DNA from: Verrucomicrobiota bacterium
GTDB lineage: Bacteria; Verrucomicrobiota; Verrucomicrobiia; Limisphaerales; Palsa-1400
Length of the DNA: 64,000 nt
Assembly: GCA_049510745.1 (NCBI GenBank)
Contig: JBEKYR010000012.1
Location: 88,267 to 152,266, forward strand
Direction: 5' to 3'
Shown here: piece by piece, positions 46,501-49,500 of the stretch
How positions within the stretch are numbered: the stretch's first letter is position 1
How the letters are laid out: the number at the start of each line of letters is the position of its first letter
Position numbers: made by a program

Positions 46501-49500
46501 TGCGGAATCGCCAAGCGGCGTCTGTTTCGTTTCATGGCGTGTCAGGCAAGGTTCATGTCGGCGGGAAAATAGCTGCGGTATTTCCGGCGCGGGTTTTGAT
46601 TGCTGGACGGTGTCACCGTGCCGCACGGGTGCTGCCAGACTTGGCGGCGGTTGTTCCAATGGAAGCCATACTCGGCCAGTGCCGCAGTGATTTCTCTCGG
46701 CTGCCGGTCTTCAAACTGAATCCAAACCCACTTGCCAACCACTTCCGCCAATTCCCAAAAGTCCGGCGCTTCCCGTCGAATCAACCTCAACAGTGATTCG
46801 GTTGGTAATCCCCGGTTCCGATGTCTGCGGGCGAAGTCAATTCTTGGCAAATTGTCTTGAATGCGCTGTGCGGTCCGGTTCTTGAGCTCTGAATCTGAAT
46901 TTGTTTTCATAATCTTTTTTTTTGCTGCTGTGCGTTCTCGGCCTCTCGCCCTTCACGAAAAAGCCTGCGGAACAGGGCGGCCAGCGGGAGTAGTCTTCAG
47001 AGGGCACCGCGTCCGGCCCCCTCAGACTGAAAGCTGCGGAGTGGAGCGGTCGCCCATTTGCGTAGGGCCAGACGCGCAGAGCGAGCGCAGCGATTCCGAG
47101 CATCGTAGCCGGAGCGAATGGGCGAGTAAGCGGAAGGCAGTGGCTTTCAGGCTGAGGGACAAGCTCGAATCCGGGGCGGCATGAGTTCGGCGGTTTTGCG
47201 GAGGCCCAGCCTCGCACGAAGGAGAAGCGTAGCCGGGAGCAAAAGCCGCCGCTCTCAGGACGCGAGGGGATCAGCCTGTCTCCGGCAATTTGAAACGAGG
47301 AACGGAGCGCAATGGAAGCGATGGACGGTGGAGTGCTTCACTGGCGGCGCTGGAATGGAGCGGAGTGAGCGTTTTGAATTGGCGGAGTCAGGCCCCAAAC
47401 CGCAGCCGATGTGTCGTCGTGGAATCTGGAGGCCGAGGCTCGCAGGCACGAGAACCGGAGCAGGAGAATTCCACGGCGACTCATCGGCGGTCGGTCCGGG
47501 GGGATGATTTGTCGGAGGAAATCCTCATCAGGAAAACTATTGTTGAATTTGTCAGAGAAAGCTTTTGACAAGATTGTCCAGGGGAGCCGGTTGCAGTGAG
47601 GATCGGATCGGAAAGGTGGTTGGAGAACGATCAAGGATTTTTTCGATCATGAAATCGGACACTAGGGTAATGGCTCGATGTTGCGATGAATCAGACTGAT
47701 GTTTCAGTGCGTACACATAATCATACCTAATGTTATTTAAACGTATCTCTAAAATCGTCAATTGGTTAGAGAAAAGAATCGACAAGCTCGAAAAATCTTA
47801 TTATATGTAATCCCTGAAGGAGAATTTAGTAGCTGAACTTTTGACGGGCATCCTCAGTAGGTTTTCCGAGTCGCCGAGAGTTTGGGGAAAGGTGGAAATG
47901 AAGTGGACGGATTTGTGGCGTGAGAGATTGGCGAAGGCTGCGCGCGTCAGTTGGAGTATTGCGACTTGTGCCTCGTTGCCAGCGAAGTTGGGGCCGGCGC
48001 TTGTTTTTCTGTTGCTGCTCGATTTGGGCGGCGCTCCTTGCCGGGGACAATCCTCTATGGGCACGGCGGCGAAGGTCCTGGATTCCAGCGATTATGCGAT
48101 CGTTCAGCGCGGGCCGCATTGGCGGACGTGGGGAACAATCACAACGCAGACGAATCAGTTGGGGCAGGTGTTGACGCAAACGAACTTGGCCTATACGGAA
48201 CTCGCCACCGGACTTTGTTACCAGAAAGATGGGCAATGGGTTGATTCTGTCGAGCAAATAGACCTTGTGGCCGATGGCGCTTCTGCGACGCAAGGGCAGC
48301 ACAAGGTTCGTTGGATGGGCAACGCAAATACGGCAGGCGGCGCGGTTCATCTGACCACTCCGGACAATAAGGATTTCCTGAGCCGGGTTTATGGGTTGAG
48401 TTATTTTGATGCTTCTACCGGCGCCAACATTCTCATCGCGGAACTGAAAGATTCCCAAGGTTTGCTCGTGGGGAATAATCAGATAGTTTATCCTGACACA
48501 TTTACCGATCTGACGGCCGACCTTGAATACGACGTGACCCTGGATGGGCTGGAGCAGAACGTCATCCTTCGCGCGCAGCCTCCCTCGCCCTCAGCTTACG
48601 GATTGAATCCAGATACTACTCGCCTCCAGGTCTATACGGAGTTTTTTGATCCGCCCGCGCCTCAAATAACGGTCATGGAGGACAATGGGATCGCGCATGA
48701 CGCATTTCTGAATTTTGGAGAGATGAGCATTGGAGTTGGCAGCGCGTTTCTCACCGAAAGCCAGAGGATCCGGATTGATGCCGGTTCGGTCTATAAGCAC
48801 TGGACGCAGATAAACGGCCGCACCTTTCTCATCGAGGAAATTCCCTACGCATCTATTGCGAACCTGCTCCAAGCGTTGCCGTTGCACTCCTCCGTGGTGA
48901 ATCCGAACCAGAGCATTATCAGGCGGATTGCCTCCTCTAAATCACCGACGCCGAAACGCGGGCTCTCGAGATCGGGCACTCCTATCCGGGTGGCGAAGAC
49001 GCGGCCCCGTCAAGCGGGTTTGGTCGTGGACTACACTACCGTTGGAAGCGTGAACAACTACGATTTCGCGGGAAACATGACCTATTATCTGTCCGCCAAC
49101 GCCGCTATGGGCGGAACGAACACGACGTTTGAAGGCGGGACGCTATTAAAATTTGCCAGCAATGTGACCATGACGGTCAATTCGCCAGTGACCTGGACGG
49201 CCAGCGCGTATAATCCAGTTATTCTGACCGCCAAGGACGACAGCGGCGTGGGAGCTTCGATCTCCGGCTCGACTCGCAATCCCGGAACAAAATATTACGC
49301 GAATACGGCGTTTTACTTCAATGCGAGCAGGGCGGGCACGAACCTGATCCTCAACCATCTGCGAGTGATGAACGCCAAGACCGCAGTGACCATCAACGGG
49401 AATACCAACCATGTATTGAGCGACGTGCAAATGGTCAACTGCGGCAATGGACTGGCCGCGACGAACGCGGGGTTCAGCCTGTGGAACGGGCTGATGTATA

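Follow-up and report, generated by a model that had tools for sequence, protein, structure and literature searches.

A gene-free stretch beside an integrase and a DUF6573 gene raises the question of which structured element occupies it, and whether that element acts as RNA or as DNA. The stretch lies in a 64,000-nt piece of a Verrucomicrobiota contig (hereafter the window), and the survey's finding was a ~275-nt two-domain non-coding element. Structured non-coding elements next to the early genes of ICEs and conjugative elements, such as STAXI, radC and Frpo, are widespread and poorly understood, and for most of them it is not settled whether RNA or single-stranded DNA (ssDNA) is the active form. 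The hairpin array described here is a phylogenetically distant, well-covarying example of such elements. Its geometry is unusually informative: the pairs at the base of the first hairpin, H0, span the start codon with which the neighbouring operon begins. Because of this geometry, both the RNA-versus-ssDNA question and the control of the p122-RadC-DUF6573 operon are directly testable. The features of the locus are listed in Table 1.

Table 1. Hairpins and genes of the locus, in window coordinates.
Feature	Position	Strand	Remarks
Tyrosine recombinase, 636 aa	43921..45831	-	Pfam Phage_integrase, E 1.2e-30; last gene downstream of the module
DUF6573 protein	45935..46336	-	Pfam PF20213, E 2e-17
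p64, basic, 64 aa	46341..46535	-	ORF, 4 nt upstream of DUF6573
p122	46542..46910	-	ORF; first operon gene
H0 remnant (earlier "box A")	46903..47022	+	5' arm, T9 run, apex
Hairpin B1 (earlier "domain 1")	47016..47160	+	~140 nt; helices 1-7 of the B alignment
Hairpin B2 (earlier "domain 2")	47176..47263	+	Helices 8-10 of the B alignment
Hairpin H3	47274..47399	+	18 copies aligned; first half of the 3' extension
Hairpin H4	47405..47492	+	9 copies aligned

Element B and its two hairpins

The element at 47010-47285 proved to be real and consists of two irregular hairpins, B1 and B2 (together B). When 47005-47290 was folded as RNA, two long irregular hairpins were obtained on either strand, with an MFE of -131.1 kcal/mol (z -2.2) for the + strand and -125.8 kcal/mol (z -3.7) for the - strand. 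B1 contains purine-rich internal loops and a CGTAGCC motif at its apex. The same motif is found at the apex of B2, whose 17-pair helix is 98% paired, and the direct repeat D7 joins the two apices. The second genomic copy was recovered at C39:203-438 and is 83% identical. The genes flanking this copy are only 84.6% identical to those of the window, whereas box A, a part of H0, is 100% identical to the window copy at C68:17122-17231 and C39:1-84.

Conservation across the family was also observed: matches at E<=1e-3 occurred in 26 of 31 family genomes, G000 counted in. B is essentially limited to this one family; beyond it, BLAST detected B-type similarity in G106 and G266 and short fragments in G185, G218 and G222. 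In agreement with the survey, none of the 4227 models of Rfam 15 matched the element at E<=5 over 46000-48500, and the sole match in this region, WT1-AS_2 (16.7 bits), lay outside it. In 13 full-array loci searched at E<=1, the hairpins were without an Rfam match except for MIR898 on the - strand of H0 in locus L007, which scored 31.8 bits against a cut-off of 75.

The pairing of B was evaluated on 29 distinct copies with a mean column identity of 82%. The consensus comprised 51 pairs, and 95.7% of 1475 cells were paired, compared with 35-44% in slid controls. No pairing measure was reached by any of 500 shuffles, a control that overstates significance because the copies are related (mean identity 72-82%). 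Changes on both sides were found in 8 of 51 pairs (11 cells) versus 2.4 pairs in shuffles. Covariation is present in B, but it is weaker than the 17 of 66 pairs reported earlier, and the majority of the pairs are invariant among the 29 copies.

The claim that stops occur in all six frames was correct for five; one - strand frame is open across 47010-47285. B is nevertheless judged non-coding; its copies differ by 1-2-nt indels, which speaks against a protein. The overlapping ORFs of 107-126 aa had no Pfam match, and coding of a protein by the element was rejected on these two grounds. An ORF running through B in the C39 copy was also rejected as a gene, since it is not kept in relatives.

Composition of the hairpin array

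The ~275-nt element had been regarded as self-contained. Our analysis indicated that B1 and B2 belong, as two of its modules, to an array of variable composition, H0-(Hx)-h1-B1-B2-H3-H4, in which h1 is a small hairpin. The modules A/A', Hx, B1, B2, H3 and H4 are found together or apart, and separate H2'-H3-H4' arrays exist. The further ~220 nt that the survey had noted on the 3' side is indeed an extension of the element, and it resolves into two more hairpins, H3 and H4. H3 has 35 pairs, 18 of which show double changes from one Watson-Crick pair to another among 18 copies, and it also occurs in separate arrays elsewhere within the islands. H4 has 29 pairs, 4 of them with double changes among 9 copies. 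Similarity to relatives stops at about 47494, where query coverage ends at 583-584 of 590. An apical CGTAG(C/T)C motif is common to H0, Hx, B1, B2 and H4. B1 and H3 are irregular, and their purine-rich internal loops of ~20 nt are conserved in sequence. Covariation was much stronger in H0 (21/60) and H3 (18/35) than in B (8/51). The unit of analysis is corrected by these results, and models are better built on H0 and H3 than on B alone.

The complete array H0..H4 (708 nt) showed no blastn similarity to any of 72,556 PLSDB plasmids, and blastn of the full array against phages gave no match. Two candidate roles were rejected. Cargo between duplicated, att-like B2 ends does not fit, as the "solo C" matches begin with a different hairpin, H2'. 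The array is not the 5' leader of a downstream gene, because what comes next varies among loci and is often convergent. The host encodes CsrA, and GGA occurs 23 times in 474 nt of the window array versus 15.0 expected (z 2.7). For a CsrA sponge of the CsrB/RsmZ type this is a modest excess, and it is limited to one family (z 0.6 and -0.2 in the arrays of two other families). Integron attC sites are 57-141 nt long. The array hairpins, at 90-190 nt, are longer, and the recombinase beside them scores far below the integron-integrase cut-offs (67.5 bits versus 265 for TIGR02249; 32.1 versus 435 for NF011946); it is below those of the XerC/XerD models as well.

Hairpin H0 at the start of p122

H0, rather than B, is the best-supported and most widespread part of the array. 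The "110-nt T-run-led box" (46911-47022) had been described as a separate unit and turned out to be the 5' arm and apex of this ~190-nt hairpin. Comparison with the second copy in the genome and with 17 relatives that keep the inverted arm revealed that the window copy, whose T9 run lies at 46915-46923, is without the 3' arm and a spacer of ~100 nt, with a deletion junction at about 47022/47023. The window array may be decayed, because half of its H0 is missing.

In the H0 alignment (A2), 21 of 60 pairs were changed on both sides. The proportion of paired cells was 95.0%, compared with 43-53% after sliding, and 0 of 500 shuffles reached it, subject to the same relatedness of copies; at least one U.G column (69/170) is equally readable as a 1-nt bulge. 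The helices extend up to 18 pairs, with ~75 pairs in all. In the inner helices, the sequence is wholly replaced among copies and complementarity is kept. By sequence, the 5' arm overlaps the p122 start plus ~75 nt upstream, and the stem spans about -75 to +14 relative to p122. The base of H0 encloses the start codon of p122 (46908-46910) together with its first four codons, whose antisense takes part in the base helix. A compensatory change of this base helix was observed across families (CATAATC/GGATTTG to CATGGTC/GACCTG). In addition, 23 p122 homologues begin with MKT(N/K) directly at the H0 base, and the register of H0 to the start codon is fixed across at least 20 families. Of 251 sampled genomes of the order, 46 have H0 together with p122, and traces of H0 exist in other parts of the phylum.

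Strand preference of the fold

The survey had placed the fold on the strand opposite to the module genes, and our results supported this: the array folds better on the + strand, antisense to the p122 operon. The RNA MFE was lower on the + than on the - strand in 18/18 H0, 29/29 B, 18/18 H3 and 8/9 H4 copies. H0 contained 6.9 G.U pairs per fold on the + strand versus 2.6 on the - strand. Among the cells of consensus pairs, the ratio of G.U/U.G to A.C/C.A was 79:6 in H3 and 31:7 in H4; tallied from the alignment tables, it was about 100:11 in H0 and about 63:21 in B. Folds with DNA parameters likewise favoured the + strand (17/18 H0 and 29/29 B copies). Array matches 1-20 kb apart on one contig were on the same strand in all 12 cases. 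These data establish the hairpins, their covariation and their selection on the + strand, as well as the overlap of H0 with the start of p122.

The operon and its islands

Neither p122 nor p64 had a match in Pfam (E<=5), PHROGs, NCBIfam or the PDB sequences, and tblastn of p122 against plasmids found none. The ESM Atlas clusters most similar to p122 are mostly viral. p64 is kept in relatives at 62-87% identity. The DUF6573 protein belongs to its Pfam family with 64 bits against the PF20213 gathering cut-off of 27. Its true ATG at 46336 gives 133 aa, and the ESM Atlas sequence begins at residue 33; 2965 representative clusters match at E<=1e-3. The AF2 model of DUF6573 (pLDDT 92.3) had no Foldseek match in the PDB at E<=0.001. 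With VIA-align, CdiA-CT and RelE/ParE-like toxins came out best at a Z of 4.7, a value inside the range stated as noise for the tool. From the model, it is only a guess that p64 and DUF6573 might form a toxin-antitoxin-like pair. No mention of the name DUF6573 was found in the papers searched, including the readable supplements of PMC11541004. H0 and p122 are often followed by RadC and/or DUF6573; among 20 loci of other families, the operon that H0 precedes includes a RadC-like JAB gene in 7, as it does in L049 and G668.

The element lies in mobile islands, divergent from the p122-p64-DUF6573 module, as the survey had stated. The module adjoins B in 11 of 19 relatives' loci (10 complete, L039 with p122 only) and not in nearly all of them. 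The proposed link to a tyrosine integrase was not upheld: the window integrase had no tblastn match beside the module in the 20-kb loci of 19 relatives. The single weak match, at 26% identity, is in L036, a locus that lacks the module, and lies ~8 kb away from B; recombinases near the module are tyrosine, serine or none. H0 and p122 occur in ICE/IME islands and in one phage-like region (L086), where the module adjoins capsid and portal-like genes. The islands carry an MbeA-like relaxase (NF047848, E 3.6e-36) with a MobC/NikA-like protein, and MobA/MobL, TraG-D_C and T4SS-DNA_transf proteins were also found. No convincing direct repeats that could serve as att sites flank 43100-47950. Downstream of the integrase there is a triple TGGTGTCCA repeat. 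No nick site could be assigned in the TraG-MobA/MobL intergenic region of L037; the small palindromes iterated in this region are of the AAGGGCGGCAC type, and a hairpin of 36 nt is also present.

RNA, ssDNA and other readings of the array

The reading that we favour, with a probability somewhat short of even, is that the array is a structured RNA of the + strand that runs divergently from the operon and is antisense to its 5' end. The array would be transcribed from the + strand as a non-coding RNA starting inside the first p122 codons. H0, as the first hairpin, would include a segment antisense to the start codon and 5' leader of p122, and the RNA, or its transcription, would repress the operon in cis, following the FinP/traJ logic. 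B1, B2, H3 and H4 may be stabilising or protein-binding modules, with their purine-rich loops and apical CGUAG(C/U)C. The RNA nature of the single strand, the transcript start and the regulation of the operon are all predictions here.

The hairpin strand is not fixed relative to the relaxase and coupling-protein genes, which favours RNA over transferred-strand DNA. The phage-like context in L086 and the mostly viral p122-like clusters also favour RNA. The irregular B1 and H3, with their conserved purine-rich loops, are unlike a mimic of double-stranded DNA, which likewise favours RNA. By analogy, STAXI was judged more likely to be RNA by its authors (Weinberg et al. 2010, PMC2864571). Several observations stand against RNA. 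Neither a promoter nor a terminator was found for it: there was no sigma-70-like site on either strand of 46500-47900 or of L002 1-1000, where the consensus of the order may differ, and no + strand intrinsic terminator in the window or the intact second copy. Moreover, the long near-continuous H0 stems, with T9 and A7-9 runs at their feet, look more like a DNA hairpin. H0 is also placed exactly as a Frpo-type promoter would be, on the template strand upstream of the operon. The relatedness of the copies and the possible decay of the window array count against this reading as well.

The main rival reading, which we consider somewhat unlikely, is that the hairpins form in ssDNA and act as a Frpo-like promoter or complementary-strand origin. 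The single strand would be the one entering the recipient in conjugation, or the one displaced in rolling-circle copying of the excised island. By re-forming a duplex upstream of p122, H0 would let RNA polymerase express p122-(RadC)-p64-DUF6573-(integrase) ahead of complementary-strand synthesis, which the remaining hairpins would prime in an sso/ssi-like manner. The conjugation proteins of the islands agree with this reading, as does the position of H0, which lies on the operon template strand directly upstream in every copy. The + strand preference of DNA-parameter folds and the co-orientation of nearby array matches also agree with it.

By the usual rule, the relaxase gene enters the recipient last, which gives the transferred strand. 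In the MbeA-type islands, the hairpin strand is convergent with the relaxase gene and is its template strand in 6/6 loci, so that under this rule it would be the transferred strand, as we infer from relaxase orientation. However, the same rule puts the hairpins on the non-transferred strand in the MobA/MobL and TraG islands, where they share the strand of MobA/MobL in 4/4 loci (three of which, L037, L048 and L049, have a full H0 and module), and in L077, where they share the strand of a TrwC fragment. The coupling-protein gene of L092 is on the hairpin strand, whereas TraG is on the opposite strand in the MobA/MobL islands; the relation is not fixed. The phage-like context of the module, the lack of a -35/-10 consensus in or near the hairpins (with the same reservation about the order's own consensus) and the absence of similarity to PLSDB plasmids also argue against ssDNA.

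In PMC12672017, -75 kcal/mol per 300 nt is the threshold for an ssDNA promoter. DNA windows of 300 nt over H0 reached down to -74.9 kcal/mol (L033), close to this threshold; the B-H3 region of the window gave -62 to -70 kcal/mol, compared with a local background of -35 to -60. Against the reading, the internal loops of B1 and H3 are very large, and both hairpins are of low stability as DNA (-21 to -32 kcal/mol). DUF6573 itself is present in 214 PLSDB plasmids, of which 129 are conjugative. An independent analogue exists in PromA plasmids, where a hairpin of ~240 nt borders directly on the first gene in a DUF6573 operon and is more stable on the operon template strand (-145.8 versus -136.5 and -153.1 versus -133.8 kcal/mol), which is the template strand of the plasmid relaxase gene too. 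A specific form of the ssDNA reading, a verrucomicrobial class in which H0 would be the ssDNA promoter of an establishment operon and B1, B2, H3 and H4 would be priming sites, with the PromA hairpin as an independent counterpart, is in our view rather unlikely. The establishment operon would comprise p122, the RadC-like JAB gene, the possible toxin-antitoxin-like pair of p64 and DUF6573 and, in some cases, the recombinase. If this form of the reading is true, ssDNA promoters would extend well beyond the enterobacterial F/IncI plasmids, and to promoters without a sigma-70 consensus.

It is improbable that the hairpins are selfish or structural repeats (BOX/REP/MITE-like) that spread in islands with no dedicated role for the operon. 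The modular, variable composition with separate H2'-H3-H4' arrays, the 1-17 matches per genome and the apical motifs common to hairpins, as in paralogous units, are consistent with such repeats; the fixed register of H0 to the p122 start codon, the compensatory changes that maintain strand-specific pairing and the absence of copies outside islands in the loci examined are not. A double-stranded-DNA site (palindromic operator, cruciform, oriT or replication origin with AT-rich feet for unwinding) is very improbable: H0 is a long palindrome between divergent units, with T9/A7-9 feet, a 5' end of p122 that is AT-rich within a genome rich in GC, and an inner motif TCGCCCTTCA that is invariant across the order together with its pairing partner, but in a duplex no preference for G.T over A.C on one strand would be expected, nor a stabler + strand in 18/18 H0 copies, a sequence-reading protein would forbid the full replacement of the inner helices, and the window copy has lost one H0 arm with its operon intact.

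Comparison with known systems

Among described systems, the STAXI and radC motifs are the closest analogues of the array. The radC motif precedes radC, integrase and antirestriction genes. H0 resembles it in preceding RadC-like JAB operons; however, the radC motif is a presumed 5' UTR on the strand of the gene, whereas for H0 the favoured fold is on the strand antisense to p122/RadC, and the radC motif model (RF01754) had no match in the window or the 13 full-array loci. Like the array, STAXI (RF01728) consists of tandem structured units in mobile DNA beside DNA-handling genes, with integrases, antirestriction genes and Ssb as neighbours, and whether RNA or ssDNA is its active form is likewise undecided (PMC2864571). 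STAXI is also common in ICEs (PMC5587801). STAXI elements differ in being short pseudoknots of Enterobacteria repeated 2-3 times, whereas those found here are plain hairpins of 90-190 nt in Verrucomicrobiota, and the STAXI covariance model found no match in the window or the 13 full-array loci.

The array shares features with the Frpo/ssi elements of F and IncI1 plasmids as described in PMC11541004 and PMC12672017: these are long imperfect hairpins, of up to ~300 nt, on the template strand, they precede early establishment genes, and several are present in each element. The array differs in its lack of -35/-10 boxes, its lack of plasmid sequence similarity and its position relative to relaxase genes, which in some islands is inconsistent with the transferred strand. 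The RNA that we propose would resemble FinP/traJ-type control, in which a structured RNA from the opposite strand spans the start codon and leader of the gene that opens a mobile-element operon. FinP is ~79 nt long with two small stem-loops; in the array, the antisense segment corresponds to a single arm of the ~190-nt hairpin, after which as many as four further hairpins follow. Single-strand origins of the ssoA type have a conserved RS_B and a CS-6 (TAGCGT) loop, and the apical CGTAG(C/T)C of the array bears a partial resemblance to these.

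Hairpin array and adjoining genes

The survey's finding had described a ~275-nt element (B, consisting of B1 and B2) as two long irregular hairpins without an Rfam relative, and folding and an Rfam search of the flagged stretch, which returned no family match, confirmed this. No ORF between 46911 and ~47494 was credible as a gene: those of 107-126 aa that overlap the array were assigned no family in the Pfam search, indels of 1-2 nt separated B copies in the alignment, and stops were found in five of the six frames over 47010-47285, one fewer than claimed. The second copy on contig C39, reached from the end of C68, was also recovered; its flanking genes were 84.6% identical, and the T-run-led box was 100% identical (46911-47022, C68:17122-17231 and C39:1-84). 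Because the hairpins fold, no credible gene is present and a second copy exists, the flagged observation is real. The C68 end and the C39 start both lie inside the box, which makes this repeat the probable cause of the break in the assembly.

What has to be considered as the unit is an array of hairpins. It is anchored by the hairpin H0, which lies where a p122-(RadC)-p64-DUF6573 operon begins (p122 and p64 are small proteins), and its window copy is truncated. Comparison of copies revealed that the "110-nt T-run-led box", previously regarded as separate, was the 5' arm and apex of H0. An inverted box copy formed the 3' arm, and the T-run and A-run were the feet; in the base helix, a GGATTTGRAAAC-type segment paired with the sequence antisense to the start codon and the first four codons of p122. 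The full identity of the box between the two copies hints that the 5' arm is under very strong constraint or gene conversion. Whole H0 was kept in the genome's own second copy and in 17 relatives, and the window H0 lacks its 3' arm, lost together with a spacer of ~100 nt (junction ~47022/47023), which is why the box adjoins B in the window copy only. The "further ~220 nt", reported as conserved only in some copies, constituted the hairpins H3 and H4. In many copies, Hx, with an apex similar to that of H0, and the small GC hairpin h1 lay between H0 and B1, and H2'-H3-H4' formed separate arrays elsewhere in the same islands. Since an apical motif is common to several hairpins (CGTAGCC-type in B1, B2 and H4; a CGTAGTC-type variant in H0 and Hx), they look, from their sequences, like paralogous modules.

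Table. Positions of the array hairpins and adjoining genes in the window.
Feature	Position	Strand	Description or basis
Tyrosine recombinase	43921-45831	-	ORF and Pfam
DUF6573 protein	45935-46336	-	Starts in fact at residue 33 of the long ORF
p64 (64 aa)	46341-46535	-	ORF
p122 (122 aa)	46542-46910	-	ORF
H0 (~190 nt)	46911-47022 (remnant, the box)	+	Copies of relatives compared side by side
B1	~47016-47160	+	Long irregular hairpin (folding)
B2	~47176-47263	+	Long irregular hairpin (folding)
H3	~47274-47399	+	Hairpin downstream of B2
H4	~47405-47492	+	Hairpin downstream of H3

The DUF6573 family comprised 2965 representative clusters and was present on 214 plasmids, 129 of them conjugative. Structure comparison of its AF2 model (pLDDT 92.3) yielded no convincing solved relative; toxins of the RelE/ParE and CdiA-CT kinds were its weak top matches, at Z values of at most 4.7, which is within noise. 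The gap between p64 and DUF6573 was 4 nt; that the two form a toxin-antitoxin-like pair is no more than a possibility.

Covariation and strand

Covariation was detected in the flagged element, but to a smaller extent than the claimed 17 of 66 pairs. B had the weakest structure support of the array, with an RNAalifold covariation term of about zero. One seemingly conserved U.G column was equally readable as a bulge, so single columns are poor support.

Table. Pairing and strand preference of the hairpins; the copies are related to each other, so shuffle figures overstate significance.
Hairpin	Copies	Consensus pairs	Cells paired	Pairs changed on both sides	Shuffles	Slid controls	Copies with lower MFE on +	G.U : A.C cells in consensus pairs
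H0	18	60	95.0%	21 (73 cells)	0/500	43-53%	18/18	~100:11 (tallied from pair tables)
B	29	51	95.7%	8 (11 cells)	2.4 pairs	35-44%	29/29	~63:21 (tallied from pair tables)
H3	18	35		18 (WC-to-WC)			18/18	79:6
H4	9	29		4			8/9	31:7

In the per-copy folds, G.U pairs were more numerous on the + strand, which was purine-rich (GC skew 0.19 and AT skew 0.19 over 47000-47499). All hairpins are selected on the + strand, antisense to p122, and the analysis shows that they function as a single strand.

RNA or single-stranded DNA

We infer the function of the array, and an RNA of some function from the + strand is slightly favoured. An antisense or divergent regulatory RNA was ranked first among the specific readings, although its chances fall a little short of even. 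As the first codons of p122 are part of the H0 base, this RNA would have to begin inside them, and it would thus run antisense to the operon's leader and start. It was placed first because of the points against single-stranded DNA.

It is rather unlikely that the hairpins act as DNA on the transferred or displaced strand, where H0 would be an Frpo-type promoter (the single-stranded-DNA promoter type of F plasmids) and the others could prime second-strand synthesis. H0 is placed exactly at the site expected of such a promoter, its stems are long and DNA-like, the islands have a conjugative context, DNA-fold energies were close to the threshold published in PMC12672017, and hairpin hits 1-20 kb apart were co-oriented in 12 of 12 cases. 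We recognised neither a terminator nor, with a sigma-70-type consensus that may not be the order's own, a promoter for an RNA gene, which favours DNA; -35/-10 boxes at the hairpins were not found either, which speaks against DNA. PromA plasmids offer a striking parallel: a ~240-nt hairpin adjoins the first gene of the DUF6573 operon, on the template strand for this operon and the relaxase gene, and it may be an independent counterpart of H0. However, blastn found no similarity to plasmid sequences. The transferred strand was assigned from the relaxase gene, which as a rule is the last to enter and whose template strand is then the transferred one; the hairpins lay on this strand only in MbeA-type islands (6/6), most without H0. 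They lay on the other strand in all four MobA/MobL-type islands, three with full H0 and module, and likewise beside a TrwC fragment. The coupling-protein gene was on the hairpin's strand in one locus (L092), whereas TraG was on the opposite strand in MobA/MobL-type islands. Moreover, the module also occurs in a phage-like region, p122-like clusters were largely viral, and the ~20-nt conserved purine-rich internal loops of B1 and H3 are unlike duplex mimics.

The PromA non-coding gap of ~940 nt between the T4SS operon and the DUF6573-containing operon (L070, NZ_CP137006.1, 18094-19034; L057, pSB102, 8590-8870) was highly structured (z -7.4 and -11.2), with repeated TGGTGACA-type palindromes.

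Comparison with known systems

The closest described elements are the STAXI and radC motifs, structured elements of ICEs whose neighbours are integrase, antirestriction, ssb or radC genes (STAXI, PMC5587801); the discoverers of STAXI raised the same RNA-or-ssDNA doubt (PMC2864571). However, STAXI and radC covariance models did not match the array in the window or the full-array loci of relatives, their units differ in architecture, and the strand on which H0 folds is opposite to that of the gene beside it. For these reasons, the array is a new family of this general kind and a member of neither. It perhaps works like FinP or like Frpo, but tests of membership in Frpo by -35/-10 boxes and by sequence similarity came out negative. 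The finding merits follow-up once re-framed around the H0-anchored array.

Distribution and island context

Array similarity was found in 26 of 31 genomes of the family. Of 251 genomes sampled from the order, 46 matched, most of them only by H0; outside the family, B-type similarity was full in G106 and G266, and three further genomes had short fragments. In the phylum-wide sample 4 of 401 genomes matched, two (G567 and G668) outside the order. The H0 apex (38 nt) was 95% identical in a distant genome. The gene adjoining H0 was always of the p122 family, apart from two loci in which it encoded another protein that begins with the same residues. Among 20 loci from other families, a RadC-like JAB gene was in the H0 operon in seven (also in L049 and G668) and DUF6573 directly followed p122 in three; p64-DUF6573 after p122, as in the window, was a third operon type. 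The claimed link to the tyrosine integrase proved incidental, as the window's integrase was not conserved beside the module in relatives, where recombinases were different tyrosine or serine types, or absent.

The relaxase of the islands was either MbeA-like, accompanied by a MobC/NikA-like protein, or of the MobA/MobL type, accompanied by a TraG-like coupling protein. Their defence and toxin cargo included SIR2-like, MmeI-like, type I RM, RHS and Sel1-trypsin genes, and capsid and portal-like genes were found at one module-carrying locus (L086). An H0-p122-integrase module at L084 (G145:C21) had, ~1.5 kb away at 4609-8641, a gene for Cas1 and one for an HNH-domain protein of 1054 aa, a Cas9-like size. 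An Acido-Lenti-1 RNA (RF01687; 43.9 bits, cut-off 37, E 7.6e-7) matched L069:2503-2548 (-) in G065:C3, on the operon side of H0 at a distance of ~850 nt and on the strand of the hairpin; the motif was absent from the window and four other island loci searched. The TraG-MobA/MobL intergenic region at L037:14450-14620 (G006:C33), a candidate oriT region in which no nick site was assignable, contained five iterated small AAGGGCGGCAC(G)CCCTT-type palindromes and a 36-nt hairpin, then a T-run.

In the window, a threefold TGGTGTCCA direct repeat (43531-43570), situated in a gap of lower GC ~350 nt past the integrase stop, may represent arm-type recombinase sites at the island's left end; a search for a right-end counterpart found none. 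After the array, the first ~100 nt of a 1065-aa ORF (47842-47944) recurred with 81-92% identity on C68, C11, C37, C81 and C2, which looks like an N-terminal or leader segment common to a multigene family. The next ORF (51078-56237) encoded an RHS-repeat protein with a Peptidase_C39 domain. A fluoride riboswitch (crcB motif, RF01734; 44.8 bits, cut-off 34) was located at 39784-39871 (+).
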